Shown here: piece after piece, positions 1,416 to 55,658 of the stretch
Layout of the letters: each line of letters opens with the position of its first letter
Numbering within the stretch: the first letter of the stretch is position 1
Source of the DNA: Methanotrichaceae archaeon
Lineage (GTDB): Archaea; Halobacteriota; Methanosarcinia; Methanotrichales; Methanotrichaceae
Length of the DNA: 64,000 nucleotides
Direction: 5' to 3'
Assembly (NCBI GenBank): GCA_963748825.1
Contig: CAVVKN010000010.1
Coordinates: 128,001 to 192,000 of the forward strand
Translations under genes and position numbers: made by a program
Notes under the pieces: generated by a model
What the model was told of the DNA's origin: nothing
The model's database searches: none
What the model saw: only the letters and a program-made list of their open reading frames with translations

Positions 1416-4400
1416 TCAGTGCACCCTCCTGCGATAGAGATAGCCTGCCAACGATATTCCTATAGTTGCGAAGAGCGCCTCGAATCCTGGAGCTTCTTTT
1501 TTAGGTTCTGCGGCAGATTTCGAAGCCGTGACCGGCATATTTCCAGTTCCAGACACTATGTTGATCTCATGTTCCGGGAGAACGAGCGTCCTGTTCATGC
1601 CCATTTCATCTGTGTAATTTACATAGGAATTCAGCCTAGGCTGGTTTACGTCCGCTGGCAGCTTCCAGCAGAATACCGCCTGGAAATCAGTGCTCCAGCA
1701 TCCGGAAAGATCTCCAATATCCCAGGTGATAGTAGTGGTGGTCCAGTCCTTGCTGTCTTCGTTAAGACGTACCCGCCCCTCATCATCTGTTGCCGTGCTG
1801 TTGAGCAGAGCCAGATAGTTGGGCAGAACATCAACCAGGTGCACGTTCTTAATCAACGATCCTGCCGTGGCCGTCTTGACGAGTGCTTCACCAAGCTCAG
1901 AGAGATCCTTGAGCGGAATGACATAACCCTTATGCTTTCTTGTCAGGTCATTGAGCATAACGGAGGCGTTTGTCTCTTTACTATCACCTACTACTATGGC
2001 GAATATGGAATATCCAGATAGATCCATATCTGCGAGATTTGGTCTTGCGTACCCGCTATCGTTGGCATCGGTGATGATAACGATCTTCTTTTCCTTTCCA
2101 CCAATGATTCCAGCTTCTCCAAAGGCCTGCACAGACTTGCTTAGCCCGATCTCGTATTTGGTGAAATTGCCTTCAGCGAACTTTATCTCAGAAGCTCTGG
2201 CCGCAACTTCAGTGTAGTTATCAATGAGAGGCACCTCTATGCCGCTGTTCTTTTCATCGCTCCATGAGACCAGGCCGATCCTTGTCACATGGTTCTTGTC
2301 ATTTGCGGCAATGTCTTCCGCAAGTTTATGGACTCCATCGACTGCCGACTCGCGCAGATTGCTGATGCTGGGCGAGTTGTCGACCGCAATCACAATATCG
2401 GTGGGAATGGCGGCAATTTCCCCAATGGAACGGGACGGGCAGATAGTGATATTATAATCGACAACATTGCCGTTCTCCCGGTCAATATTCTCGGTAGAGA
2501 GATCGCTAACTTCCTTAGTCACTTTGATATCACTATCGCTGCTGATAGGCGTCTTCTCCGTGCCTGTGATTCGATGGCAACGTAGGCAGTAGTAGTTGCC
2601 AAAGGACTGGTTTATGCTGGCTCCAATGCTTAAGCCGACCCTTCTGGTAATGGACGTGGTGTTCAGCCAGCCTTCAACCAGGTTTTCAGTTATGGTGTAG
2701 GCTCCTGGAGTCAGCCTTTCCAAAGCAGTGATTCCATCCGCGTTGGTGGGGCTTGCCGTAACTACACTGCCGTTGGGGCATCTGACCATGAAATTCCAGC
2801 CAGGCAGTCCGCTTTCGCCCGTATCGTATATTCCGTTTCTGTTTGTATCATTGAACTTGAAGATCTCAAGCCTGCTCGATTTGACATTGCCGAAAGGCGG
2901 CACAACAACATCTTCACCCGAGTTGAGATCTACAGAAACTGCCAGAGGCGTTGTGTTGATCCAGCCACTTTGCAGAACCTCAGTTATGATGTATCTTCCC
3001 GGCACCAGTCCTTTTGCAGTAGTCATGCCCTCAATATTGGTAGGATCTGTAGTGATTGTTCTGCCGTCCGGACCCTCGATATTGAAACTCCAGCCCGGCA
3101 AACCCTCTTCGTTACCATCTTGCTTGCGATTCAGATTTGTGTCGTTGAACTTCTTGAAGATGAGACTGTTGACACTATTGCCGAAGACTACTTCGTTTGG
3201 CAATTTGCTCGATATTTGAACCGGGTGAGGGTTCAGAGTGGTGCAAATCCATCCAGGCTTTGAATCCTTTGATATATCTTCAGTGACTATGTATTTGCCC
3301 GGGATAAGATCATTTACATAGGCAATTCCCTCGGCATTGGTTGTACCGACTTTATTGATGCCTTCCGGTCCTTCTACGATAAATTTCCAATCTGAAAGTC
3401 CACGTTCTATTGGAATGCCTCTTGCATCTAAGTCACGTCTGCCATTCCTGTTCAGATCCTCAAACTTGATAATTCGCATGCTTAGCAATTGTTCGTTGAC
3501 AAATCGAACCGTAGCTACCTCACCAGGCAGCAGTTTTACAGTCTGAACGATATCGGTTTTTGCTCTCCAACTCCCTGGTAGATTGCCTGGAAGTATCTCC
3601 TCAATTTCATATTCCCCCGGAAGCAGATTGCTAACCGTAATTACTCCGTTATCATCAGTAGGATCTGTTGGGTTATTTAGGTCCCGATCTGGCCCACTTA
3701 TCATGAAAGTCAATCCGTTAACCGGCTGTCCTTCAGAATCCATCTTGATGATCTTAATGGTTCCCGTCTTTGCATTCTTTGCCCGTACTGGGGGATTCTC
3801 GCCTGGTTTTATAGTCACCTTATTTGGCGTGATAGACATGAGTTTCCATCCGGGCTGTGCAATTTCTTCTATCCCATATTTTCCCACAGGCAATCCAATC
3901 CACGTTGCCTTTCCTGAACCATCTGTAGGTCCAATTGGGAAGGTACCTTGTCCTTCTTGTCCTTTAGCGATGAAAGACCAGCCGGACATTGTACGATTTT
4001 CAGAATCAACCTTAGTGATTGTTAACACATTAGGAATATTATTAATTACCTTTTCCACAGTTTTTCCCGAATCAATTTTTATCTCCTTCAAAGGGGCTAT
4101 ATAGACCCAACCCTCTTTTGGGACTTCTGTAAGGTCGTATGTTCCGGGACGGAGATCTGTAAAAATGGCCTTGCCGAATCTATCTGTAATTTGTGATTGG
4201 TTAACATTCTTTTCGGGAATCTCTTTCGGTCCTTCTGCCCAGAATGTCCATCCTGACAAGTCCTCTTTCCATCCATCCGTTTCTTTCTGTATCTTTAATA
4301 TTCCCGGTTTTTTAACTTTTATTTCGATAATATGCGTTTCATTTATTAATTTGGTTTCATCCTTTGCATTAGCTGTGATTTCCACATAGTCAGTTCCCTC

Positions 4401-4983: not shown

Positions 4984-6342
4984 TCATTCTCCCTCATACC
5001 TCACCAGCCCGTCCCACCCCTCTCCATGAAACTTCGCGAAGATTCCCACGTCGCCCTTCCCGGCAGTCGCATTCCCTTCAAACAGATCCCCTCGCGACGC
5101 AAGATTTGTCCATTCGTCCCCGCACACCACAGAAACATTCTCGGCACCCAGAACCCTGATCCGGAACAAGTAGCTCGACCCGACCAACAGCCTGCCCTCC
5201 AGGGGGCTGAAGAGATAGGCCCCTGCTTCGCTGAACTTTCCGTAAACCATGGGAAAACCGGGGCTCTCTTTATCACCCGAGGAGGCATTGATCCTATATT
5301 CTAAAACGGAGTTGTACTCGCCCGGCTCGTCCTTCTGCTTGGCATACGCCTTCAGAATATAGCTTCCTGCGGCAGGAAACTGTGCATAAATATCATATCG
5401 CTCTCCATCTCTCTGGCAAAATGTGTAACCATCCAGTTTTGCCCTGGCTGTTGCCCCGCGGTCCGCATACTCCAGCCCCGCCATCATCAGCATATCCTCT
5501 GGGGCATAGATGGAGACATTGATCTGCTTATCCGCTATTATCGTCCCGTTCTTTTGGCCAAGCTTCAGGCCCAGGTTAAAAAAGTCCGATTCGAGATAGA
5601 CCAGATTCTCAAACTCCTGCTTGGAAACGGGCTCATCGACAAGTTGCCACTGAGTATCCAACGGGAAGTGGCCGTAGATAAACTGGGAGGGGGGCGTCAT
5701 AAAAAAGTGATCGTCGAATTTGCGCACGTATTTCTTATCCCCGCTCACGTACCCCGCCCCCCAGGTCGAGTCGATCAGATACCACGATCCATTTATCTTA
5801 AGGGCATTCCAGGCATGATTGGAGGGACCAGTGAAGTTCTTGCCAGGCATGTAGCCGTACCCCTTTCCGTAGCCTCTGATCCTTACGGTCTCTAGCCCGG
5901 CTTCATTGGCCAAGGAGAGGAAGATATCGGAATAGCCGTAGCAGACCGATTTTCTGCTTTTCAAGACATCCTCAGCATTCGTTGCCCCGGTGCCTCCCTT
6001 GAAAAAAACCTCAACATTGTAGTCGATGTTCTCTGTAATCCACCGGAATATCGCCCTGGCCTTCTCGCGATCATTTTCCGCCGGCTCGATCAAGTAGGCA
6101 GCCAGGCTTTGCACAGAAGCTTCGGCTGAGGGTGGCGCATTCAAAGCATGACGGTCAATTTTCTCATAACTATAATTCAGAGTGGCGTTAAAATCATTGG
6201 GAGCAAATGCTGCTAATCCTTTTTCAGCATCCTTCTCCAGGACACTTGGCGTTTCAGATGTGGCCATCACAGCAAGCGTCTGTAGCATTAGTATGATTAA
6301 AATAATTATTATTCTCATAGACATCTCCCCAGTAAGAATCAA
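4984..6342 (-). CDS. Secreted transglutaminase-like (KY/Cyk3-type) cysteine peptidase domain protein
   Basis: Catalytic triad motifs VCYGYS, HAWN and DSTWGAG; signal peptide. Confidence 0.85.
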   Translation of the reverse strand: MILTGEMSMRIIIILIILMLQTLAVMATSETPSVLEKDAEKGLAAFAPNDFNATLNYSYEKIDRHALNAPPSAEASVQSLAAYLIEPAENDREKARAIFRWITENIDYNVEVFFKGGTGATNAEDVLKSRKSVCYGYSDIFLSLANEAGLETVRIRGYGKGYGYMPGKNFTGPSNHAWNALKINGSWYLIDSTWGAGYVSGDKKYVRKFDDHFFMTPPSQFIYGHFPLDTQWQLVDEPVSKQEFENLVYLESDFFNLGLKLGQKNGTIIADKQINVSIYAPEDMLMMAGLEYADRGATARAKLDGYTFCQRDGERYDIYAQFPAAGSYILKAYAKQKDEPGEYNSVLEYRINASSGDKESPGFPMVYGKFSEAGAYLFSPLEGRLLVGSSYLFRIRVLGAENVSVVCGDEWTNLASRGDLFEGNATAGKGDVGIFAKFHGEGWDGLVRYEGE

Positions 6343-6368
6343 AACATAATTGTCCTTCTCTCATCGAA

Positions 6369-6415
6369 CCTTCGCGGCTTCGCGTGAACCGGCATCTTGC
6401 GCGAAGTCGCGAAGG
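6369..6415. repeat. Intergenic inverted repeat (16-bp arms, 15/16 complementary)
   Basis: CCTTCGCGGCTTCGCG ... CGCGAAGTCGCGAAGG. Confidence 0.7.
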
Positions 6416-6455
6416 GATCGATAAGCTAATGGGACGAGGAGCAATGACATCGGTT

Positions 6456-6965
6456 TCATTTCAGAATCGCCTGGGCTTCACGCGGGTGCAGAACCTTCGT
6501 CTTGAACTCTTTTGGGATGCGATAAGCCCTTAGAATTCGGTCTGTGGTTATGAAGTAATCCACATCGTAAGCCAGAGCATAGCCCATATGCACCAGGTCT
6601 GCTGGTTTGATTCTTGAATCTTTATAATCGCCATGGTTATACAAATTGTAACAGGTCGCGGCGACTGCTTCGTTGGGGTGAAGAAATGATATTCTCAGGG
6701 CGCTCCAGATATCGATAAGCTCGTGAAGCTCTTCCCGGTTATGCTTTCCCTCCCGGCCCTTCCACTCACCTTCAACGCAGATAATAACTACTTCACCAAG
6801 AACTGAAATCGGGACGCAGAGCGAGATATCAGGATGACCGCTCAAATGAAATAAGAATTTTTTGATGTCATAGGGATTGATATCCCGTTTGGTCAGATTT
6901 TCACTCTTTTGACTGATGGAGAAGAAGAAAATATCCGCGTCAATGGCTGCTCGCAGCATAGCCAT
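6456..6965 (-). CDS. PIN-domain protein (VapC-like)
   Basis: AAIDAD...VLGE...ADLVHMGYA...FITTD acidic PIN motifs. Confidence 0.75.
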   Translation of the reverse strand: MAMLRAAIDADIFFFSISQKSENLTKRDINPYDIKKFLFHLSGHPDISLCVPISVLGEVVIICVEGEWKGREGKHNREELHELIDIWSALRISFLHPNEAVAATCYNLYNHGDYKDSRIKPADLVHMGYALAYDVDYFITTDRILRAYRIPKEFKTKVLHPREAQAILK

Positions 6966-7168
6966 TACTCTTTTCCAAAGGCCTTTTTTATGCGAGCCAT
7001 CATCTGGTCATGCTCTTCTTTGGAGACTTTCCAGAGGATCTTGCCGTGGATGTCAGTGGCTCCGCCATAAGGCATCTGATTATCATTTAGATCGTAATAT
7101 TGCTCTTGTATCTCTTCGGGAATGAATGACTCCTCCTTTGGATAGATGCATGTTAGCACATCCGGCAA
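6965..7168 (-). CDS. Small hypothetical protein overlapping the PIN gene (candidate antitoxin)
   Basis: 67 aa; TTG start; stop overlaps the PIN start codon by 1 nt. Confidence 0.5.
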   Translation of the reverse strand: MPDVLTCIYPKEESFIPEEIQEQYYDLNDNQMPYGGATDIHGKILWKVSKEEHDQMMARIKKAFGKE

Positions 7169-7230
7169 AACAGAAACCTAAATGATCTGATTCATATTTA
7201 AATTGATCCATAGCTTGAATACAATGATTC

Positions 7231-7974
7231 TTACAGCACGATCTCCATCATGTCGTGGCCCAGCGGCCATTCCTTGAGAGCCATTTCGTGGGGAGGATAA
7301 AGGTGGCTTAAGTGCGTGAGCAGCAGCCGTTTCGCTCCCAGCCGCTCCCCCAAGGCCATGGCTTCGTCTGCCGTCATGTGCTTGCTGATGGTGTAGCCCG
7401 GCGGAGTAATGGCATCCGCCAGCATCAGATCGGCATCCCTCATCAGCTCCAGGCTCTCCTCGGCAATCTCCATCTTGGTGTCGCTGGTAATAACCACCAC
7501 TTTATTGCCGTCGTCAATGCGCACACCCACCGTCTCCGTGGGCGGGTGGTTGACGGGAAAAAGAGTGAACTGCATTCCGGCTATATCGAAGGGCTGATAG
7601 GCTATGGCGTCATGGCGCACAGGATTTAGGAAATAAAGATAGTTGAGTATGTAGTCCATGGTGTTCTTCAGAGCATAGACATCCACATGACTTTGCACCC
7701 GGTGAAAATCCCCAAAGCCGGCATAGTGATCGTAATGGGCATGCGTCCATATCACGCCATCCACACTGGATATGTCCTTCTTTAAAAGCTGCCAGCGCAG
7801 ATCGGGGCTGCTGTCCACCAAAACCCGGCCGTCATCCTCATCCGACTCTATGAGAATGGAAAACCTCATCCTGCGGCTTCTGCCCCCGCGAAGAGCATCC
7901 ATGCAGGCCGGACACTTGCAGCCGATCTTGGGTGTGCCGATGGCGTCGCCCGTGCCCAGGAGCGTGACCTTCAT
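7231..7974 (-). CDS. MBL-fold metallohydrolase (PhnP-like)
   Basis: LLGTG...P..GC.C..C; THAHYDH; THLSH. Confidence 0.9.
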   Translation of the reverse strand: MKVTLLGTGDAIGTPKIGCKCPACMDALRGGRSRRMRFSILIESDEDDGRVLVDSSPDLRWQLLKKDISSVDGVIWTHAHYDHYAGFGDFHRVQSHVDVYALKNTMDYILNYLYFLNPVRHDAIAYQPFDIAGMQFTLFPVNHPPTETVGVRIDDGNKVVVITSDTKMEIAEESLELMRDADLMLADAITPPGYTISKHMTADEAMALGERLGAKRLLLTHLSHLYPPHEMALKEWPLGHDMMEIVL

Positions 7975-7992
7975 GCGGTCCTCATGCGGACC

Positions 7993-9285
7993 TCATGCCG
8001 TAACGCTCCGCTTGTAATCAGAGATCCTGCGCCGGAACTCATCTACAGAGATATCCAGATCTTCCTGGTTTAGATGCCTGCGATCCTCCAGGAGTGCATT
8101 GAGCACTGCTTCCCTGATCACTAACCTCAGATCCGAGCCCGAGTAGCCCTCCGTCATCGCTGCGAGCTTGGCCGTATCTACGTCGGCATCAATGCGGGAC
8201 AGGACTTTGTCCAGGATCATGCGCCTCATATCCTGGTCCGGCAGGGGGAAGCTCAATACCTTGTCAAACCTCCTCCAGGCAGCATAATCCAGTAGCTGAG
8301 GGTGGTTGGTGGCCGCCAGGAGCAGAACGCCATGCTCCACCAGGCTGATCTCATCTATGGCTTTTAGGAGCGAGTTGACGGCCCTCTTCATGGCTCCGTG
8401 CTCATCCGAGGTCCTGGTCTTGGCCACGAAGTCAAACTCATCAATGAGCAGTATGCAGGGGGACAGCCTCTTGGCCAGCTCAAAGACCTTGTCTATGTTC
8501 TTAGAGGTCTCTCCCAAATACTGGCTGGTGATCATGGAGAGGCGGACCTCCACAATGGGAAGGGAAAACCAGCTGGAAAGAGCCCGGGCGGTAGAGGTCT
8601 TGCCGGTTCCCGGCGGGCCAACAAAAAGAAGCTTGCCTATCTCATAAAGGCCGATCTCTCGCAGATATTGCCGGTTTTTTAGAGCCTTGCCCATCTTTTC
8701 TATCTCAGACTTCTGATCCTCAGTTAAAATCAGGCCGGCTATGCTGTCCCTCACATCCTCAGGGGCCTTGATATAGGCCAGCTTGAGAAGATCTTCCGCT
8801 TCCTTAGAATCCTTGCAAAGCTCCTTTATTTTTGCGTCGATCCACTCCCGGTCGGCAGAGAGGGGCTTATTGGCTTTTCTGGCCTCAGCATAGCTCACAT
8901 CCAGAGAATCATAGTTCTCATAGAAGTAGGCCAATGTAGGATTTGATTTGATCCTGGCCAGGTCCTTTTGATTGGCGAACCACTTGGCCGCCACATCGAA
9001 TACGGTCAGCCGAAGCTGGGAGCCAAACTCCTCAAAAGCCACAAACGTAAGATCTTTTACGACCGCTTTGACATTCTCAATGCCATAAATCTTCTGTGCA
9101 TCGGCGCTGGTTACATAAATCGGCCTTTTGACGCTCTTGGTCTGCACATCGAAGTAATGCTTGCGAATATTGGGGGGCAGGTCGTCTTCAGTCAAATTTT
9201 CTTTGCGGTTATAAATATCTGCAGTCAGCAGCAGCTCTGCAACATCAATAGCACCAAACTTATCCAAGTCATTCTCTACGCCCAT
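7993..9285 (-). CDS. AAA+ ATPase
   Basis: Walker A GPPGTGKT, Walker B LLIDEFD, SRH ATNHP..LD.A.WRRFD. Confidence 0.9.
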   Translation of the reverse strand: MGVENDLDKFGAIDVAELLLTADIYNRKENLTEDDLPPNIRKHYFDVQTKSVKRPIYVTSADAQKIYGIENVKAVVKDLTFVAFEEFGSQLRLTVFDVAAKWFANQKDLARIKSNPTLAYFYENYDSLDVSYAEARKANKPLSADREWIDAKIKELCKDSKEAEDLLKLAYIKAPEDVRDSIAGLILTEDQKSEIEKMGKALKNRQYLREIGLYEIGKLLFVGPPGTGKTSTARALSSWFSLPIVEVRLSMITSQYLGETSKNIDKVFELAKRLSPCILLIDEFDFVAKTRTSDEHGAMKRAVNSLLKAIDEISLVEHGVLLLAATNHPQLLDYAAWRRFDKVLSFPLPDQDMRRMILDKVLSRIDADVDTAKLAAMTEGYSGSDLRLVIREAVLNALLEDRRHLNQEDLDISVDEFRRRISDYKRSVTA

Positions 9286-45792: not shown

Positions 45793-46340
45793 TGTCGGAT
45801 AGATTTTCTGGAGGGCGACGGCCAGGCCGTAACTCCGGTGGAGTACAAGCGGAGCGAAGCGCCCAAGACACAAGGCTTTTACGAGCCGCATCTGATCCAG
45901 CTTGCTGCTCAGTGCCTGGCCCTGCGGGAGATGGAGGCGGAAAAAGAGCTTGAAGGCAAGCCCGAAGAGGAAAAGATCAGAATGCTCCTCGCCTGCCGGG
46001 ACGATCAGGTGCCGGTTTACGTGGTGGGCCAGGGCAAGACGGTTCGAAAGCGTGGCGAGCGGTTGGAGGTCTGGTCTTATGAAGAAGGCAAGATCAGCGA
46101 AGCCCGGATCAGGGAGATCTCCAAGATCTGCCTTTACAGAGGAGTGGAGATCACCACTCCGGCCATGGTGGAGCTGATGCAAAGGAATGTGCCGGTGCTG
46201 CACTTCTCCCACGGCGGCTGGTTTCAGGGTATTTGTCTAGGCATGAGCCACAAGAATGTTCTCTTGCGCATCAAGCAGTTCCAGGGGCAGGAGATGAGGA
46301 GAAGTCGCTATCCATTGCCAGAAAGATCGTATCCGGAAAT
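45793..46340 (+). pseudogene. cas1: cas4-cas1 fusion relic (type I-G/I-U-like); 5'-truncated, internally deleted, frameshifted
   Basis: Cas4 motifs RIDFL...PVEYK...QLAAQ joined to the Cas1 N-terminus PVYVVGQG..V.K.GERL...ITTPAM...FSHGGWFQG...KNV.LR; another frame continues EKSLSIARKIVSG. Confidence 0.85.
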
Positions 46341-46352
46341 TCAAATCTATTT

Positions 46353-49325
46353 TTACCTAACTTCTGCTAGTCGCTCCTCATATCGCCCTGCGGCAGGGAA
46401 CACTCTTCCCAGAGCGCTGGCCAACTCTTCCAGGCGCACGGGCTTGCTGATGTAGTCATCCATTCCTGCCTCGATGCATCTTTTCCTGTCGCCCTCTAAA
46501 GCGTGCGCAGTGACTGCGATTATGTGAGGCGATCCATTCGGCCAGCGTTCGCGAATGGCCTTTGCCGCATCAAAGCCGTCCATCTCTGGCATTTGCACAT
46601 CCATCAGGACCACGTCATAGTTCTGGCGTTCCAAAGCCTGCAAGACCTCTCTGCCGTTGGCTGCCACATCCGCTCTGATCCCCAGCTTCCTGAGCATGAG
46701 CAGGGCAACCTTCTGATTTACCAGATTATCCTCTGCAATCAGCAGCTTCAAATGGCCAGGAATATCTTGCTGCAAATCGACCATATTGGGCTTCTTTTTC
46801 ATCTCCAAACATTGCTCTGGTGTCGCTTCATCAGCCAGAATTGTGAAGCCAAATGTGCTTCCCCTGCAAATTTCGCTTTGCGCCCAAATGGTCCCGCCCA
46901 TAAGCTGCACCAGCTTTTTGCTGATGGCTAGACCCAAACCCGTTCCGCCATATTTGCGAGTGGTAGACATATCCACCTGGCTAAAGGACTGGAAGAGGCT
47001 GCTCATGCGATCCTGGGGAATGCCGATCCCCGTATCTCTGACCGAGAAGAACAGCTTAGTCTTTCCATTCTCCTGGCCGTCGCCCGAGACATGTACCGAT
47101 ACCTCTCCACGGTCTGTAAACTTGATTGCATTGCCGAGGAGGTTTATTAAGACCTGGGAAATGCTGGTGGCGTCTCCCTGCAGCCTCTTCGGAATGCAGT
47201 CATCAATATGATAATAAAAATGGATATACTTCTTCGCAGCAATGGGCTTGAGCAAGTCCATGGCATCTTCAATGCATTTGCTTAGTTCGAAGGGCTGCTT
47301 TTCTATCTCCCTCTTGCCTTCTTCGATCTTGGAGAAGTCCAAGATATTGTTGATAACGGATACGAGGATATCACCGCTGCTACGCACCGTCTCCAGGCAA
47401 TCTTTTTGATCTGGCAGAAGAGGAGTATCGAGAAGTATTCCCGTCATGCCTATGATGGCGTTGAGGGGAGTCCTGATCTCATGGCTCATATTAGCCAAAA
47501 ATTCGGATTTGGCGCGAGCAGCGGCTTCTGCATCCTCTTTGGCCTTGCGAAGAGCCTCTTGTGCCTTTTTGCTATCGGTAATATCCCGTACCAATAGTAA
47601 AAACGTGTCCTCTCCGCCAGGGTTGATGCGCGCCTCAAAGAATGACATCTTGCCATCTATAATGAGCGCATACTCGAAGATCTGCATCTTTCTGGTTTTT
47701 TTGGCCTGATTCACATGATAAAGAGCCTGGTCAACCATATCCTCCGGTAGAAGATCCTGCATTTTCTTGCCCAGAAATGACTGAGGAGGCAAGTAGAGTG
47801 GTGATGTCTCCTGCACATTATAGTCCAAAAAGGTGCCGTCCTCGGCGATCAGGAACATCATATCGGGAATTGCATCCAGAAGAGATCTATTCTTAGCCTC
47901 GTTTTTTTTCAGCTCCATTTGAGCCCTCATGCGCTCTGTTATATTGCGCACGGATTCAATGGCACCGGTGACATTGCCTTCAGAATCGTAAAGTGCCGTT
48001 GCACTTCCCTGCAAAAAGGCCTCGCCCCCCCTCATATTGGGCATAAAGCCCTCCCAAAAGATATGGCCGTCTTCCTGTCTCATCATTTTATCGTAAAATT
48101 CATTCGAAATCCAATATCTTCTGCCCCACTCGTCATATTCATCCGGTGATTCCTTATTATATTCAAGCACGATATCGGCAAGCGTCGGCCGGCGTTTGCC
48201 ATAAAAAGGAAGCGCATACTCATAATGGCCTTTTCCCAGCATATCTTTGGCAATAATACCGGTCATCGCCTCGATAGCCCGATTCCAGGCTATGACTGTG
48301 CCCTGTCTGTTAATAACAAAGGTGGCGTCTGGCAGGAAATTGATAATATCCGCCAGGCGGCGTTCGGAGTCTTTTAGCGCATCTTCAGCTTCTTTTCGAT
48401 CAGTTATGTCTCGTATGGATTCAATAGCTCCAATTAATTCTCCCTCGTTATCCCGAAGAGGGGATGCTGTAGCCCAGACATAAGTTCTCTGGCCGGCCAA
48501 TAAAAAAGGTGCCACCGATTCGGCATAGAGGGTATCCCCTTTCTTTTCCACATAACGGTATTGAGACCTGGTCTCTGGATTGTCGCCATATATCAGGTCG
48601 ACCAGAATAGGCCGTTGCTCTCCATAAAAGGGAACGCTGTATGCATAGTCGCCCTTTCCTATTATCTCCTGTTTTTTGATGCCGGTCATTTCCTCTATGG
48701 CCCGGTTCCAGGCAATCACTTTCCTGCTCTTATCTATGACGAAGGTGGCATCAGGCAGAAAGTCAATTATGTCCATAAGCTGGCGGCGGGTGAGATTCGC
48801 CACCTCATCCGAACTAAAGCTCTTTTTTGCTTCTTCGCATATAAGCTGATTTCCCCCATTTTCCTGCTGGACAGCTGCAAATCGTATGGTCTTTTTCGTC
48901 CCATCCTTGCAGGTTACCGTAAAGGTCCGGCACCTCTTGGCGCCAGCTCCAATTTCATTTTTATCTTTGATCCAGGCTGCTATGGCAGCATTTCGATAAT
49001 CTGGGTCAGGAAAGGCTCTCTTAAACCATTCTCTTCCGCACGAAATCTCTTCTAGATCATAACCAAAAATCTCGATAAATTTAGGATTTATGCTGCAGAA
49101 TGTCCCGTCTTTTTCAATGATGGCAATAGCTAAAGGAGCGTTTTCGATAATGCTGGTGATGTTTCTGCTTCTATCCTCCAGCTCTTCCAGGCCGACTATA
49201 AGACGCTCTACCGTCTCTGAAACGGCCCGGCAAGTCGGGCAGGTCTCTGCGATTTTACTGCCAAGCTCATCTAATGTGAGGCTGATCTCATTTATCTTAT
49301 CGCTAAAATAGCTGCCCATAACCAA
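46353..49325 (-). CDS. Hybrid sensor histidine kinase (4 PAS + HisKA + HATPase + receiver)
   Basis: [43 protein letters not shown]. Confidence 0.95.
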
Positions 49326-49509: not shown

Positions 49510-50387
49510 GGTAGTGTACCTTAAATAAGTTTATATGTCTTCATCGCATAATTTAACCGGGGAAAGCAATGAAGGCAGATCGATTAGCTTTAGCAGGTTC
49601 GTTTTGTTGGAATAGAGGCTGTACAAGCTATGGCAAAGTGGATCACGGAAACATTGTCCGATACGGTCGTACTGCCAAAGGCACGCAGCGTTTGAAATGC
49701 AAAATATGTGGCAGTGTTTTTGTAGGTAATAAAGGGACTATATTTTATGGTCTGCATCATAGCCCAAAAGAGATCCTAGAATGCTTGTCTCTGCTTGCTG
49801 AAAGGAACAGTCTGGCAGCCATCCATAGAACTAAAGGAATAAAAGAGGAAACCGTTATGGATTGGCTCCATAAAGCAGCAAACCATGCTGAGGAGATCGA
49901 AGCGTTATTGCTTGCCAATCACCATCTGACTCGTGTTCAGCTTGATGCCATGTGGACCTATGTAGGTCACGAAGGGGAAAAAGCAACCATTCCGAGGAGC
50001 CCGATCGAGGTACATTCTGGCGGGGTACTGCTATAGATATTGATACGAGGTTGAGGGTTGCACGTGCAATAGGAAAGAATGAGGAAGAAGTCGCAGTGGT
50101 TATGATGTCGCAAATAAAAGATCGCTACAACCCCATTGAACCTCCCGCGATATCAAGCGACGGAAATGATAGTTATCCTGAAGCAATGCTTGAGATCTGG
50201 GGTAAGTTGCCCGAATACAATGGTCGAGGAAGACCTCCTACTCACAAACAACCGCAACCTGGATGGAAATGCCTTCAAGTGACCAAGCATCGTTCTGGCA
50301 GAAGGTTGGTTGGCGTCACTCACAAAGTGGCCTACGTGATGATGTTAGTTGTTTCTGAAAGGAACAACGCATAATGGGGAGACTACC
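49510..50387 (+). mobile_element. IS1-family insertion sequence, probably internally deleted
   Basis: Imperfect TIRs GGTAGTGTACCTT / GGTAGTCTCCCCA (rc); encloses insA/insB-like ORFs. Confidence 0.8.
49569..50374 (+). pseudogene. IS1 transposase: Zn-finger+HTH ORF and -1-frame DDE ORF, C-terminally truncated
   Basis: C...C...G...GTQRLKCKIC; QLDAMWTYVG then GGGGAAAAA shift site; TFWRGTAID...ISSDG...Y. Confidence 0.8.
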
Positions 50388-50421: not shown

Positions 50422-51426
50422 TCAATCAGATTTGTGAACCTGAAAGTCAATGACCACATTGCTTCTGTGGGGTGCATAACTTCTTACTATCTCTTTGTAG
50501 AGCACTTCCCCTTCGGCACCTATCTCCTCAGCCGCCTTTCTTAACAGAGCCTCATCCCTGTAAAGATCATCTTCTGGAGCTATGCAGTAGTAATGGATGA
50601 TTCCCTCCGGCTTTGCCGCCCTCATGGCAGGAATTAAGAATGCAGATGCGCTGTGGGGAAGGTTCATGATCACATGATCTGCTCGGTTCTCGTAGCGCAG
50701 GGCCAGCTCTGCAGCATCGCCTTCCAGGATCTCGATGCGCTTTATTTTATTCAAGAGCGCATTCTCTCTCAGGTATTTCACAGCGACGGGATTCTTGTCC
50801 ATGGCGATGACGTTTGCCCCCTTTTTTGCCAGAAGCAGGGCGAACGGCCCCACACCTGCGAACATATCGAGAACGACGTCACCAGATCGAACCAGGCTGG
50901 CGATTCTTAGCCTTTCTGTGCCCAGGCGAGGAGTGAAATATGCCCCTTCCAAGTCTACCCGGTAGCGCAGGCCGTGCTCCTTGTGGAGGGTGACGGTTCG
51001 AATCTCTCCGGCCACATGCCGGAAGCGGCGGGTGCGAAATTCCCCTTCTACGTCAGAGATGGGAGCAATGACCGTTTTTATGCTCTTGCTGGTGGACATG
51101 AGGGCGGCGGCCACGCGCTCTGCATCACTGTCCTCTATCATGGCAATGTCGCCCACCACCTCGAAGCTGGGCCGAAAGCCCAAAAGATCCTCCGGGCTTG
51201 GCACGCACTCTTCCTGCTGGAAATTGATATGCACCAGTTCAAACTCTGCAATGCTGCCGACCATAGCGGCTGACTTTTCATCCATCTCCAAAACCGGCAG
51301 ATAGACATGGGATTCATCCGAGCAAATCTTGCGGGTGCGATCGAATGTGCCCATCTCCACCAGAGCCTTGCGAATTTTCTCTCCACTTTTTCGGCTAACC
51401 TTCAAACCCAGGGATTTATCCAGCAT
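50422..51426 (-). CDS. trm5: tRNA (guanine-37-N1)-methyltransferase Trm5/Met-10 family
   Basis: VEGEFRTR, YFTPRL.TER, DMFAGVGPF, VIMNLP, VRSYAP. Confidence 0.88.
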   Translation of the reverse strand: MLDKSLGLKVSRKSGEKIRKALVEMGTFDRTRKICSDESHVYLPVLEMDEKSAAMVGSIAEFELVHINFQQEECVPSPEDLLGFRPSFEVVGDIAMIEDSDAERVAAALMSTSKSIKTVIAPISDVEGEFRTRRFRHVAGEIRTVTLHKEHGLRYRVDLEGAYFTPRLGTERLRIASLVRSGDVVLDMFAGVGPFALLLAKKGANVIAMDKNPVAVKYLRENALLNKIKRIEILEGDAAELALRYENRADHVIMNLPHSASAFLIPAMRAAKPEGIIHYYCIAPEDDLYRDEALLRKAAEEIGAEGEVLYKEIVRSYAPHRSNVVIDFQVHKSD

Positions 51427-51624
51427 CTTGGGGGACTATAGGATGCCATCTATTAAATATGCCTGTCAGGGAGGTCTATGTGCGTCTTGGCTGGTTATGC
51501 GCGCATCTATCAGGCAGTCTGCTTTCAATTCTCAGTTGCCAAATTGCAGATAGCCAAAATTGCGGATAGAATAGCGGATGCCAGAAATAGCTTTATCTCT
51601 GATCGGGTCCTGGACAAAATCATT

Positions 51625-51897
51625 ATGCTAAAGCGCAATAATGGCAGCAAGGCAATATCGGCATCCGAGATCTCGCAATATGTCTACTGCCCAGTCTCAT
51701 GGTACCTGAAAAGATGCGGAGTGCAGCCGCAATCATACGGCCTGAAGAGAGGAATCGATGCGCATGAAAAAGCGGGAAGCAGGCTGGTCCTTCTAGAGAG
51801 ACGGGAGAGGGCGGCCGGAGTATTCCGATTGATGGGCTATTTCTCTGTGGTTGCTGCAATTTTGCTCATGGGATGGGTTTTATGGACTTATTTTTAA
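51625..51897 (+). CDS. Cas4 N-terminal-segment protein with a C-terminal TM helix (90 aa)
   Basis: ISASEISQYVYCPVSWYL...GIDAH, then hydrophobic tail YFSVVAAILLMGWVLWTYF. Confidence 0.75.
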   Translation: MLKRNNGSKAISASEISQYVYCPVSWYLKRCGVQPQSYGLKRGIDAHEKAGSRLVLLERRERAAGVFRLMGYFSVVAAILLMGWVLWTYF

Positions 51898-52427
51898 TTT
51901 TATTTTCCTTAGTTTTGGTTCTCTTGATTTTAGCCGTTGCTTTCCAATTGCTGTCAAAGAGAGAGTCGTCATCGGCAAAAACCATGCGCATGGTTTATGG
52001 AATTCCTGCGGGAAAGGTGATCTACTCTGATCTGGACCGCCCAGGAAAGGCCCTGTATTCCAAGAGCCTCGGCATCAGCGGCAAGCCGGATTACATAGTC
52101 AAAGGCAGAGGTCGCAGCTTGATTCCCGTGGAAATTAAGAGCGGACGAGCCCAAGAGCCCCATAGAAACCACGTCATGCAATTGGCGGCATACTGCTATC
52201 TGGTAGAAGAGAACTACCACAGGTCGGTTCCCTATGGGATAATTGTATATTCCGATGCAAAACAGCATAGAATCAATTTCGATAAATACCTGAGATCCGA
52301 TTTGCTGGCAACGGTAGACGAGATGAAGAGGGCTTTAGGGCATGATTGTCCCAAGAGAACGCATAACTATAAACAAAAATGCCGCCACTGTTCATTTAGC
52401 GGCAGCTGCAAGAACAGTCTGGTGTAG
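51882..52427 (+). CDS. cas4: Solo Cas4-family (RecB-like PD-(D/E)XK) nuclease with an N-terminal TM helix
   Basis: GKPD, PVEIK, QLAAY, CRHCSFSGSC; N-terminus LFLILFSLVLVLLILAVAFQLL. Confidence 0.85.
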   Translation: MDLFLILFSLVLVLLILAVAFQLLSKRESSSAKTMRMVYGIPAGKVIYSDLDRPGKALYSKSLGISGKPDYIVKGRGRSLIPVEIKSGRAQEPHRNHVMQLAAYCYLVEENYHRSVPYGIIVYSDAKQHRINFDKYLRSDLLATVDEMKRALGHDCPKRTHNYKQKCRHCSFSGSCKNSLV

Positions 52428-52967: not shown

Positions 52968-53756
52968 TTAATATATATTTTTCATCATTTTTAAGTTAAT
53001 CCTGGCAGTCGAGTCCAGCGTGAGCGGAGTCAGGGAGATCTTCCTGTCCTGGTAGATAGTCTGCACATCGGTGCCCTCTGCATCACAGCAGATCAGATCG
53101 CCATCTATCCAGTAGTAGGGCCTTCCTCTCGGATCAAAGCGCTCCTGCACAGTGGTCTTGAAGATCTTGCGAGCCAGCCTGGTGACGACAATCTCCGTAT
53201 CCTCTGTGGCATCGGCCGGCACATTCAGATTCAAAACATCCACTCCCTCAGGAAGGCCGTGCTCCAGCACCTTGGTGGCCACGCGGCGCAGCACTTTCGT
53301 GGCTATGTCAAAATTGTGCTTCTCGCCGTGGTGCATATCGAATTTGTCGCCCTGGTCTACAACCTGAATCGATGCGGCGATGGAGGGAATGCCGTAGCTG
53401 GCAGCCTCCAGTGCTGCGCCGATGGTCCCGCTTGTGGTGACCGTGTCGGTGCTGATGTTCTCGCCCACATTGATTCCCGAGACGACAAGGTCGGGAAGCT
53501 CGCCCTTCATGATGGCGAAGATGCCGATAATGACGGAATCGACGGGCGTTCCCGTGACGGCATAGGCATGAAAACCATTCAGGTTTACTTCTGCGTAGCG
53601 CAGCGGCTCAAAGACAGAAACGGATCTTCCTACGCCGCTCATCTGCCCGGAGGGCGCAGCTACTACTACCTGGCCCAGGCCCTGCACGCTTCTAGCGGCA
53701 GCCTGCAGCCCAGAGGCGTAAACGCCGTCGTCATTGCTGACCAGTATGCGATGCAT
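52968..53756 (-). CDS. surE: 5'/3'-nucleotidase SurE
   Basis: ILVSNDDG, GTPVD, VSGIN.GEN, SGTIGAALEA. Confidence 0.96.
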   Translation of the reverse strand: MHRILVSNDDGVYASGLQAAARSVQGLGQVVVAAPSGQMSGVGRSVSVFEPLRYAEVNLNGFHAYAVTGTPVDSVIIGIFAIMKGELPDLVVSGINVGENISTDTVTTSGTIGAALEAASYGIPSIAASIQVVDQGDKFDMHHGEKHNFDIATKVLRRVATKVLEHGLPEGVDVLNLNVPADATEDTEIVVTRLARKIFKTTVQERFDPRGRPYYWIDGDLICCDAEGTDVQTIYQDRKISLTPLTLDSTARINLKMMKNIY

Positions 53757-53795: not shown

Positions 53796-54671
53796 CTAAT
53801 TGAACATCTCCAGCAGCCGTTCTACGATCTTGTTGAAGCTGCCGCCCGCATTCGTCTCACTCTGCACAAATGACTGCCCTCGGTCGCCCAAGGCGCAGAC
53901 ACTGGGATCAATGGGAATTGCCCCCAGGAAGGGAACATCCATCTCCTCTGCCATTCTTTTCCCTCCGCCAGCACCGAAGATGCTTATGCTTTCGCCGCAA
54001 TGCGGACAGTTCAGGCCGGACATATTCTCCACAATGCCCAGAACGGGGATCTTCATGGCCTTAACCATGTTCACCGCCTTTCGAGAGTCGAGCAGAGCGA
54101 CCTCCTGGGGTGTGGTTACTATTATCGCCCCGGCCAGCTCGGGGATGAGCTGCACCACGGAAAGCGGCTCGTCAGAGGTTCCTGGCGGCAGATCAACGAT
54201 GAGAAAGTCAAGATCACCCCAGTTCACATCCTGAATGAACTGCTTGATGGCGGCCATCTTCATGGGCCCGCGCCAGACCACGGGCGAGTCGCGGCTGGAG
54301 AGAATTAGAGCCATGGATGCCGCCTTTATGCCGTCCGCCTTTGCGGGCTCAATCCCATCTTGCCCTTGCATCAGCCTTGCATCCTCTATTCCGAGGAGCT
54401 TGGGAATATCCGGGCCGGTGATATCGGCATCCAGTATGCCCACTCGCATGCCCTTTATCTGCAGAGCGCGGGCCAGGTTAACAGAGACTGTACTCTTGCC
54501 TACGCCACCTTTGCCGCTGGCGATAATGATTTTGTGCTTGATTTTGGCCATGCGATCGACTTTGTGCGTGCATTCTTTTCCATCATTCTGATCTTTGCAG
54601 GAGCCCTTTTGGGCACACGAATCGCAATCATTGTTCTGTTTTGTCATGAGAGTCATTCCGCTAGTTGGCAT
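53796..54671 (-). CDS. mrp: Mrp/ApbC/NBP35 Fe-S cluster carrier ATPase
   Basis: SGKGGVGKST, WRGP, DLPPGTSDE, ENMS...CPHC. Confidence 0.93.
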   Translation of the reverse strand: MPTSGMTLMTKQNNDCDSCAQKGSCKDQNDGKECTHKVDRMAKIKHKIIIASGKGGVGKSTVSVNLARALQIKGMRVGILDADITGPDIPKLLGIEDARLMQGQDGIEPAKADGIKAASMALILSSRDSPVVWRGPMKMAAIKQFIQDVNWGDLDFLIVDLPPGTSDEPLSVVQLIPELAGAIIVTTPQEVALLDSRKAVNMVKAMKIPVLGIVENMSGLNCPHCGESISIFGAGGGKRMAEEMDVPFLGAIPIDPSVCALGDRGQSFVQSETNAGGSFNKIVERLLEMFN

Positions 54672-54749: not shown

Positions 54750-55658
54750 TCATTGCTCGATTGGATTTTCAGTTGCATGAAAATAGAGCTTGCCATTATG
54801 CTGCCTTCTGGATATCAGGCTGTCCTTCTCCATGATCTTGCAGTATTTGATGGCGTCGCTTCCGTCTATTTCCAGGTGGCGGCTTATCTCCTCTAGGGTG
54901 CAGGGCCTGGCAGAGAGAAGATCTATCAGCCTGTCTCGGATACGGGCGGGAACACTCCAGTCCCAGTCCGGTATCAACTCAGCACCGGGAAAGATCTCCA
55001 GCATCCTTTGCATCTCCTCCTCGCTCAGAGCTTGCACGGGCTCAGCCGGCGGCCGGACCACCGTGTTGAGCTGAATCCTGTCCGGCTGGGTAGACTCAGC
55101 CGCCCTTGCGATCAATTCAGCCTCCTGGTCATTTATGCCCCTCACCAGCATCACCTCCAGCCAGATCTCGCCGGAAAATTCCTTCCGGAAGTCCTTTAAG
55201 CCCTGAATCATATCCTTCGCATAAAGACCGGATGCTGGCCTGTTGACGGCCAAAAAAGCCGCCTGGCTGGCTGCATCCAAGGACGGCAAGACCACATCCG
55301 CAGCCGCGATCTCTCTTCGAACCGAGGGGCTGGAGAGAAGGGTGCTATTGGTGATCACTGCCACGGGAGAGTCGACAATCTCCTTGGCCTGGGCCACGAT
55401 CTCGCCCAGATCAAGGCTTAACGTCGGCTCTCCCGATCCGGCAAAGGTGAGGTGGTCGAAAGGCTCTCCCCGTCTCAGCTCGATCTCCTTCAAGACCTTC
55501 TGGCGGGGCACGAAACGATCCCGGCATGAGGTTAAACAGGCGGTCCGGCCCAGCTCACAGTAGACGCAATCCAGGTTGCAGGTCTTGTATTTGAGCAGGT
55601 CCACGCCCATGGACAGGCCCAGGCGCCGAGAGAGCACAGGCCCAAAGAGGTATCCCAT
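54750..55658 (-). CDS. Radical SAM protein (COG0731-like)
   Basis: GPVLSRRLG.S.G, CNLDCVYC, GSGEPTL. Confidence 0.9.
   Translation of the reverse strand: MGYLFGPVLSRRLGLSMGVDLLKYKTCNLDCVYCELGRTACLTSCRDRFVPRQKVLKEIELRRGEPFDHLTFAGSGEPTLSLDLGEIVAQAKEIVDSPVAVITNSTLLSSPSVRREIAAADVVLPSLDAASQAAFLAVNRPASGLYAKDMIQGLKDFRKEFSGEIWLEVMLVRGINDQEAELIARAAESTQPDRIQLNTVVRPPAEPVQALSEEEMQRMLEIFPGAELIPDWDWSVPARIRDRLIDLLSARPCTLEEISRHLEIDGSDAIKYCKIMEKDSLISRRQHNGKLYFHATENPIEQ

Follow-up and report, generated by a model that had tools for sequence, protein, structure and literature searches.

A Cas4-family nuclease apparently divided between two overlapping genes at a predicted membrane hairpin in Methanotrichaceae and other archaea

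Cas4 proteins (PF01930/TIGR00372; e.g. 8D3L of type I-C, Sso0001, 4IC1 and Pcal_0546, 4R5Q) are known as soluble single chains, and CRISPR-associated members adjoin cas1/cas2 or a repeat array. Archaeal solo-Cas4 genes lie outside CRISPR-cas loci in housekeeping surroundings (Hudaiberdiev et al. 2017, PMC5704561; Rentz et al. 2025 on the Methanosarcina mazei protein, PMC12501428); they occur in most archaea, and their function is stated there to be unknown and their cellular role open (available text of PMC5704561 and PMC13621843). Here we describe two overlapping open reading frames (ORFs), A and B, in a 64,000-nucleotide (nt) stretch of a Methanotrichaceae archaeon (assembly GCA_963748825.1, contig CAVVKN010000010.1, positions 128,001–192,000; hereafter the window, i.e. 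the whole stretch analysed). The pair shares the fold, motifs and four cysteines of Cas4; in contrast to the known proteins, it has a predicted hairpin after motif I with the gene cut at its turn, and it does not adjoin cas1/cas2 or an array. Our results suggest, with a probability of about 0.8, that A and B are translated separately, probably in a coupled manner, as the two halves of a single membrane-tethered solo-Cas4-family PD-(D/E)xK/[4Fe–4S] nuclease.

The iron-staple/RecB-like fold is also shared with the iron–sulphur (Fe–S) nuclease domains of AddB, AdnAB, Dna2, Exo5 and MGME1. These domains are soluble and fused to or partnered with a helicase, whereas a helicase gene adjoins the A–B pair in just 2 of 12 lineage-representative loci (L053 and L054). 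Membrane-anchored nucleases are known from bacterial DNA uptake, i.e. EndA of Streptococcus pneumoniae and NucA of Bacillus subtilis, whose catalytic domains are extracellular and whose folds are unrelated to Cas4. Their likeness to A–B is that a hydrophobic helix would tie a nuclease to the membrane, which offers an analogy for a role on membrane-crossing DNA. Unlike them, A–B is predicted to hold its domain in the cytoplasm and to need an Fe–S cluster, and no link to uptake genes was seen. We found no published description of a Cas4-family enzyme that contains a membrane hairpin and is, in most cases, the product of two coupled genes. The full-text literature searched, which excludes subscription journals and supplements, contains no membrane-anchored or split Cas4; nor does the available text of PMC5704561, PMC12501428, PMC13621843 and PMC5898192, although the supplementary trees of PMC5704561 may contain these sequences. 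In the main texts of PMC5704561 and PMC12501428, the word 'split' is absent and 'membrane' occurs once, in PMC5704561, within an unrelated gene name.

Profile hidden Markov models (HMMs) divide the Cas4 domain between the two ORFs. Residues 58–177 of B align with positions 61–179 of the TIGR00372 cas4 model (expect value (E) 2.7e-26; 92.5 bits, over the cut-off of 65), and B also exceeds the PF01930 cut-off of 22.7 with 48.4 bits. Residues 11–55 of A align with positions 1–45 of the 180 in TIGR00372, under the cut-off (E 0.0088; 15.9 bits). A and B jointly are one Cas4 domain minus the stretch that holds the hydrophobic segments. Residues I11, A13, C22, W26, G32, G43 and H47 are invariant in an alignment of 26 A sequences, as are Y48, D50, L51, G67, P69, D70, E84, K86, P93, H97, Q100, Y104, E109, C167, C170 and C176 in an alignment of 54 B sequences. 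The RecB-type motif residues thereby fall on two chains (H47 in A; D70, E84, K86, Q100 and Y104 in B), and so do the four Cys of cluster type (C22 in A; C167, C170 and C176 in B), which are predicted to bind [4Fe–4S]. Because these invariant residues are divided between A and B, the cluster ligands and the metal site would both need both chains. The Mn ligands of Sso0001 are His62, Asp99, Glu113 and the Ile114 carbonyl (available text of PMC12501428), and A His47, judged by its position, is the likely equivalent of His62.

The initial annotation of this DNA had already described the motifs, the helices and the 16-nt overlap of A and B (Table 1), and our ORF calls, HMMs and hydropathy agree with that anatomy. 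It went too far in holding that the cluster could be completed only in trans, because B of the window's genus has five Cys in all, i.e. two more than the cluster-type ones: C105, which is nearly invariant, and C155, which is genus-specific. B is read in the −1 frame relative to A, and a second in-frame ATG at 51873 would lengthen it to 184 amino acids (aa).

Table 1. Positions of the A–B pair, its motifs and its neighbours within the window
Feature	Position	Strand	Description
ORF A	51625-51897	+	90 aa; N-terminal Cas4-family piece; C-terminal hydrophobic helix
ORF B	51882-52427	+	181 aa; N-terminal hydrophobic helix, Cas4 catalytic core, three cluster Cys
A/B overlap, 16 nt	51882-51897	+	ATG of B at 51882; stop codon of A (TAA) at 51895-51897
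Cys22 codon of A	51688-51690	+	candidate first [4Fe–4S] ligand; invariant
His47 codon of A	51763-51765	+	G-x3-H, RecB/Cas4 motif I; candidate metal ligand; invariant
Hydrophobic C-terminal helix of A	51811-51894	+	about residues 63-90; from hydropathy
Hydrophobic N-terminal helix of B	51882-51965	+	about residues 1-28, then a basic stretch; from hydropathy
GKPD of B	52080-52091	+	motif II, Asp70; G67, P69, D70 invariant
E84-I-K86 of B	52131-52139	+	motif III, ExK; E84, K86 invariant
Q100-LAA-Y104 of B	52179-52193	+	QxxxY motif; Q100, Y104 invariant
C167-x2-C170-x5-C176 of B	52380-52409	+	three C-terminal cluster Cys; all invariant
Trm5	50422-51426	-	divergent from A
TPR ORF, 65 aa	52568-52765	-	neighbour
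SurE	52968-53756	-	neighbour
Mrp/NUBPL-type ATPase	53796-54671	-	Fe–S cluster carrier type; 1.4 kb from the pair
Radical SAM gene	54750-55658	-	neighbour
Cas1 N-terminal fragment, 205-aa ORF	45838-46455	+	5.2 kb upstream of the pair

We then consider the hydrophobic segments that separate the two parts. Kyte–Doolittle hydropathy over a 19-residue window (KD19), for which 1.6 is the usual mark of a membrane helix, peaks at 1.99 in A (residues 69–87; above 1.6 for windows starting at 63–72) and at 3.33 in B (residues 3–21). Other Cas4 genes compared (i.e. the CRISPR-linked L001 of the window genome, the soluble 203-aa type of its relatives and Methanosarcina-type proteins of 266–273 aa) contain no segment above KD19 1.2, and the Methanosarcina-type relatives L029 and L032, unlike A–B, have no hydrophobic segment. 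The two helices are thus foreign to canonical Cas4, as had been proposed, and A–B departs from the soluble single polypeptide of that family in being two overlapping ORFs with a hydrophobic helix in each. Four Lys/Arg stand beside each helix on the side of the catalytic part (four in A 51–67 and four in B 23–38, with none in the four residues past the A helix). This charge distribution is consistent with the earlier suggestion that both catalytic halves are cytoplasmic.

Single-chain relatives of 259–301 aa (e.g. L019, L038, L041, L044, L049, which is the same as L110, P0103, P0107 and P0127) show how the parts belong together: an N-terminal Cas4 piece, two hydrophobic helices and the Cas4 core follow one another in one polypeptide. 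In L019, from a sister family, one open frame of 280 codons (1477–2262 of that locus) holds both parts, and the C-terminal helix of A aligns with the first hairpin arm of the fused relatives. An AlphaFold2 model of L019 from an alignment of 69 rows (predicted local distance difference test, pLDDT, 95.1; predicted template modelling score 0.89) places the motif-I His on helix 35–80, which continues as hydrophobic arm 1; a turn of three residues then leads into helix 84–115, which runs back as the second arm. Foldseek matches of this model are headed by Cas4 8d3l_I/J (E 1.6e-7; TMt 0.68–0.69), followed by 7mi5 (Cas4/Cas1), 4ic1 (SSO0001; 4ic1_D) and 4r5q, and the list includes Dna2, ACE1, MGME1, AdnAB, AddB and Exo5. 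A sequence search of the Protein Data Bank with the fused relative returned the Cas4 entries 8d3l (E 9.9e-7) and 7mi4 (E 0.0017) and otherwise chance antibody matches. From the order of parts in single-chain relatives and the L019 model, we infer that the two helices are arms of one hairpin inserted after motif I and that the gene is cut at the hairpin turn.

The split form is the common form in nature. A profile of 26 A sequences, searched against 1.84 billion representatives, matched 1109 proteins at E<=1e-3; 149 of these reach E<=1e-10 and one reaches E<=1e-30. Among the best 150 matches, 136 have at most 145 aa, one of middle length looks like a read-through, eight have 250–310 aa and five exceed 310 aa. 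A hydrophobic segment is present in 132 of the 136 short matches and lies at most 12 residues from the C-terminus in 128. The eight of 250–310 aa comprise seven fused forms and P0251 (259 aa); P0251 and P0263 (331 aa) have an N-terminal Cas4 piece and several helices without the core. Cas4 pieces stand at both ends of P0194 (357 aa), P0197 (499 aa), P0242 (516 aa) and P0272 (574 aa), between which tandem two-helix units of about 50 residues can be read from the sequences (two in P0194; four in P0242, P0272 and, by eye, P0197). At the other extreme, L117 (a Thermoplasmata archaeon, match 3001–3453) is a 205-aa single chain belonging to this clade, 43% identical to B, with no insert and a maximum KD19 of 1.03; it is a possible natural soluble control. 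The predicted hairpin thus occurs in 0, 1, 2 or 4 copies among the relatives.

In the close-relative survey (tblastn with A in 40 related genomes; loci L005–L020 fetched), 15 of 16 loci have A upstream of B, the exception being a contig that begins inside B. The −1 frame and the 16-nt overlap are common to the 14 split loci of the genus, although their junction letters differ; the five-T run of the window junction is replaced in several of them. In a sister genus within the family, the pair is again split, but B uses the other relative frame and overlaps A by 26 nt. When 401 genomes of the phylum were sampled, 19 gave a B-type match at E<=1e-20, and 18 new loci comprised 12 split and four fused forms, one with a degenerate A and one with stops. 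A one-genome-per-species scan yielded 546 stretches encoding a relative, and the counts by named genome refer to the best 80 of them: these come from Methanothrix/Methanotrichaceae, Methanofollis, Candidatus Mnemosynella and many Thermoplasmata/Thermoplasmatota, and include 70 split loci, one fused and the hairpin-less L117. The motif search found no A in eight of the 80, two of which (L137 and L139) have <300 nt of upstream sequence available. Together, the 97 junction records reduce to 83 distinct junctions, of which 75 use relative frame 1 and eight use frame 2; the pair, whose conservation the initial annotation had left to be checked, is conserved across Methanotrichaceae, Methanofollis, Candidatus Mnemosynella and Thermoplasmatota. 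Five loci bearing the pair (L075, L089, L132, L140 and L143) come from bins labelled Methanoregula, Chloroflexia, Syntrophobacterales, Blastocatellales and Chloroflexota; the L075 and L089 copies are 88% identical to a Methanothrix protein, and these bins with bacterial or Methanoregula labels probably contain mis-binned contigs. A complementary distribution with soluble Cas4 was also considered and rejected because genomes that bear the pair also have ordinary Cas4 genes.

A tree of the C-terminal 150 residues was built from 110 rows, reduced to 95 once duplicates were merged; it excludes the broken or partial L016, L017, L018, L020, L050 and L052, as well as loci in which no A was found. This tree requires five changes between fused and split forms, and its strongly supported branches force at least two. 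In the Methanofollis-type clade, a fused group is sister to a split group (support 96). Both ORFs are under purifying selection: pairwise Nei–Gojobori ratios of nonsynonymous to synonymous substitution (dN/dS) among genus orthologues, with the overlap left out, have a median of 0.247 for A, where 70 of the 78 pairs from 13 loci were usable, and of 0.183 for B, where 48 of the 55 pairs from the 11 loci of 170 codons or more were usable. The partial loci L015, L016, L018 and L020 were dropped where a part is absent.

We also predicted the complex by co-folding A (26-row alignment) and B (54 rows) with a 4Fe–4S cluster. The interface score ipSAE (interaction prediction score from aligned errors) is 0.79 for A+B and 0.02 for the best of three controls; in calibration, 58 of 80 solved complexes but just 2 of 110 mismatched pairs attained the ipSAE mark. 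At least 95% of contacts are common to the runs, with partner pLDDT of at least 79. In the predicted complex, A63–89 packs against B4–32, helix to helix, and A10–30 against B95–107 (the QxxxY helix), B141–152 and B166–178 (the Cys loop); the lowest-error contacts of the B QxxxY motif are with A13–A20, and B 166 and 170–176 touch A. The heterodimer paired through the two helices, which the initial annotation had envisaged, is therefore the arrangement that passed the controls, helix–helix contacts included, and co-folding supports binding of A to B without proving it.

These results point to the following mechanism. A two-helix hydrophobic hairpin would have been inserted after the motif-I helix in this clade, and in most lineages, the window's included, the gene would be divided at the hairpin turn, which leaves arm 1 at the end of A and arm 2 at the start of B. 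Pairing would take place through the membrane helices and through complementation of the Cas4 fold: the motif-I His and one cluster Cys, the first, would come from A, and the other three cluster Cys, the Asp, the Glu-x-Lys and the QxxxY motif from B. The product would be a nuclease tethered at the cytoplasmic face of the membrane; its membrane insertion and orientation, Fe–S loading and nuclease activity are inferred.

Several observations weigh against this reading. The membrane helices are called from hydropathy and from the model of L019, and in this fused relative the hydrophobic arms are just ~14–17 residues long in both sequence and model, so that its hairpin is possibly re-entrant instead of membrane-spanning. 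The extra Cys in B of the window's genus may leave room for a cluster without A. The pass of the complex may reflect the likeness of A and B together to the solved single-chain Cas4 fold, and the co-folding used its own alignments and a ligand, unlike the calibration set. Copies decay in some genomes, i.e. L017 (G017), with a frameshift before the three-Cys loop, L050 (G402), with a degenerate A lacking the His and the helix, and L052 (G317), with two stops in the match. No B-type match (only ones weaker than E 1e-12) was found in, for example, the same-genus genomes G005 (99% complete) and G023 (95%); the pair is missing from some complete genomes of the genus and is therefore dispensable. 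No conserved neighbour in the 12 lineage-representative and 80 best loci indicates a pathway. Three RNA runs contain 4–9% of sampled words, and the sole RNA trace is one 228-nt contig (52055–52282) inside B from one metatranscriptome, which may be DNA carry-over and is too little for expression or co-transcription.

Alternatively, B alone might be the working enzyme, with its cluster held through another Cys or with none, and A a separate small membrane protein of regulatory or chaperone type. B by itself does pass the Cas4 HMM cut-offs and has five Cys in the genus, and a cluster-less solo-Cas4 mutant of Methanosarcina mazei is reported to be still active (PMC13621843). We nevertheless consider this unlikely: A Cys22 and His47 are invariant at the first-ligand and motif-I positions, A always adjoins and overlaps B, the fused relatives carry the A part in the same polypeptide, and the predicted interface sets A10–30 against the QxxxY helix and Cys loop of B.

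Two further explanations concern the junction itself, where the window reads TAT TTT TAA in the A frame and TTA TTT TTA in the B frame. One more T in this five-T run would unite the frames, and together with the broken copies among relatives (L017, L050 and L052) this could suggest a mistake in sequencing or assembly, or a single-chain membrane Cas4 that has recently become a pseudogene. Such an origin is hardly credible and was rejected, since the same arrangement recurs at the 83 distinct junctions in many assemblies, single-contig genomes included, the catalytic and Cys residues are invariant, dN/dS of both ORFs is far below 1, and three DNA runs, which come from different studies, have contigs that bridge the junction gap-free (X1, 51541–52107; X2, 51740–52099; X5, 51749–51908), at most two of the three being independent because the best-matching run may be the window's own sample. 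The sole indel reported in DNA-run contigs on the surveyed stretch is at 51428, outside the pair, and uncovered parts in runs X5 and X18 carry no meaning. One fused A–B polypeptide could instead arise at the T-run that precedes the A stop, either by programmed −1 frameshifting or by slippage during transcription: tRNA-Phe could re-pair one base back with the stop codon in the A site, the same nine end letters occur in 13 of the 97 junction records, and fused relatives exist. We judge this very improbable and rejected the programmed shift because the slippery run is not conserved; orthologues that share the frame arrangement do not keep the T-run, and a canonical XXXYYYZ heptamer occurs in only 6 of the 83 distinct junctions. 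Further points against it are the other relative frame and 26-nt overlap of the sister genus, the ATG of B, kept in 13 of the 14 genus loci, and a Shine–Dalgarno-like site within A in Thermoplasmata that is positioned for independent initiation. The repeated arrangement, dN/dS below 1 and gap-free contigs show that the split is real and conserved; they sustain the earlier view that a simple frameshift is unlikely, and we retain the reading of A and B as two separately translated halves of one nuclease.

At Thermoplasmata-type junctions (including L106, L109, L112–L114, L116, L118, L122, L124–L126, L129–L131, L133, L135, L136, L141 and L142), a Shine–Dalgarno-like GAGGTG or GGGGTG stands in the last 18 nt of A in 23 of 27 loci, and the B-frame codon that overlaps the A stop is ATA in 20, ATG in two and TTG in two. 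The ATA overlaps the stop as ATAG or ATAA; the last codon of A varies and its final A is kept. B of this type often has no ATG, GTG or TTG ahead of its hydrophobic helix. This junction may be a conserved non-canonical start or a site of termination–reinitiation, and these sequence features suggest that A and B are tightly coupled in translation, with a possible ATA start in Thermoplasmata.

The surroundings of the pair are those of a solo-Cas4, i.e. a Cas4-family gene outside cas loci and mobile elements with housekeeping neighbours. The claim that there is no CRISPR context holds in that the 64-kb window has no CRISPR-like repeat array and no cas1 or cas2 adjoins the pair; it is qualified by the Cas1 fragment upstream (Table 1). 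In that ORF, residues 60–152 match only positions 1–92 of the 283 in PF01867 (E 1.1e-16), and it runs tail to tail into a 990-aa ORF of the opposite strand, with the two 3' ends overlapping. It looks like a truncated cas1 remnant; it clustered with no ORF of the 11 other loci compared. Two full-length cas1 genes of the window genome lie on other contigs beside ordinary Cas4 genes, and no cas1 was found among clustered neighbours in the 12 and 80 loci.

No conserved partner gene was found in the 12 lineage-representative loci, and the pair itself is the only item common to them. Recurrent neighbours among the 80 loci are read as lineage or housekeeping synteny: a ~339-aa ORF, putatively Trm5 as judged from where it lies and how long it is, in 27, none of Thermoplasmata type, a ~226-aa ORF without Pfam match in 23, and, in Thermoplasmata-type loci, eRF1/Pelota-like, ABCE1-like and AlaDH-like genes and a 75-aa ORF without Pfam match. 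As for the two loci with a helicase, a 691-aa superfamily 2 helicase (DEAD/ResIII/Helicase_C; 6094–8169, − strand) overlaps the end of B in L054 of Candidatus Mnemosynella, and an XPB-type helicase (5869–7236, − strand) lies ~0.9 kb downstream on the same strand in L053, a family-f2 genome with the fused form. An Mrp/NUBPL gene is near the pair in 5 of the 12 loci, i.e. the window and the Methanofollis-type L055, L056, L062 and L063, in which it is 0.1–4.2 kb from the Cas4-like gene and in two cases adjacent. We give it no weight as a partner because it is not near the pair in a complete same-genus genome (locus L061); its proximity is probably due to chance.

No relatives were found in the viral contigs scanned with the patterns used. 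The initial annotation had gone further and suggested an assembly-gated enzyme that acts on entering DNA, for which the housekeeping, non-conserved neighbours and the lack of viral copies in that scan give no ground. The role might be the processing of DNA ends near the membrane, either in repair or in attack on incoming linear DNA. As there is no conserved neighbour and no viral copy and the pair is dispensable, we commit ourselves only to a two-chain Fe–S nuclease that is tethered to the membrane, faces the cytoplasm and acts on nearby DNA ends.

If so, this clade, built into the membrane, offers a handle on the role of solo-Cas4 because it would tell the enzyme's place and the DNA within its reach. 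It would also be a natural example of a one-domain metalloenzyme in two chains that share a metal site and an Fe–S cluster, with a helix pair as the link; the fused, split, hairpin-less and hairpin-amplified forms can be compared, which is useful for studies of gene fission, split-enzyme design and Fe–S assembly. A broader reading, which we regard as doubtful, is that these proteins form a widespread membrane-embedded Cas4-like class in which modular hairpins, often divided between two genes, build an oligomeric bundle with a ring of Fe–S nucleases on the cytoplasmic side that degrades or trims linear DNA crossing the membrane. It takes the 0, 1, 2 or 4 hairpin units as copies in cis and proposes oligomerisation for single-hairpin forms. 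If true, it would imply an innate defence at virus genome entry or DNA uptake, possibly supplying fragments for CRISPR adaptation.

Current annotation hides the pair. B relatives are named 'CRISPR-associated protein Cas4', while A is a 'hypothetical protein' at NCBI and in some JGI entries 'Cas4 (RecB family)'; A genes of 90 aa, as predicted by other pipelines, make up 42 protein clusters.

Two further features lie upstream of the pair in the window. Between a histidine kinase gene and Trm5, two overlapping ORFs of 155 and 140 aa (49569–50374, + strand) have no Pfam match, and the first has CxxC pairs; our guess is an insertion-sequence transposase read in two frames. This ORF pair is 1.3 kb upstream of A, past Trm5, and is not conserved with the A–B pair. 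The 990-aa ORF (46353–49325, − strand) shows, by eye, PAS-like repeats together with the core of a histidine kinase and a receiver domain.

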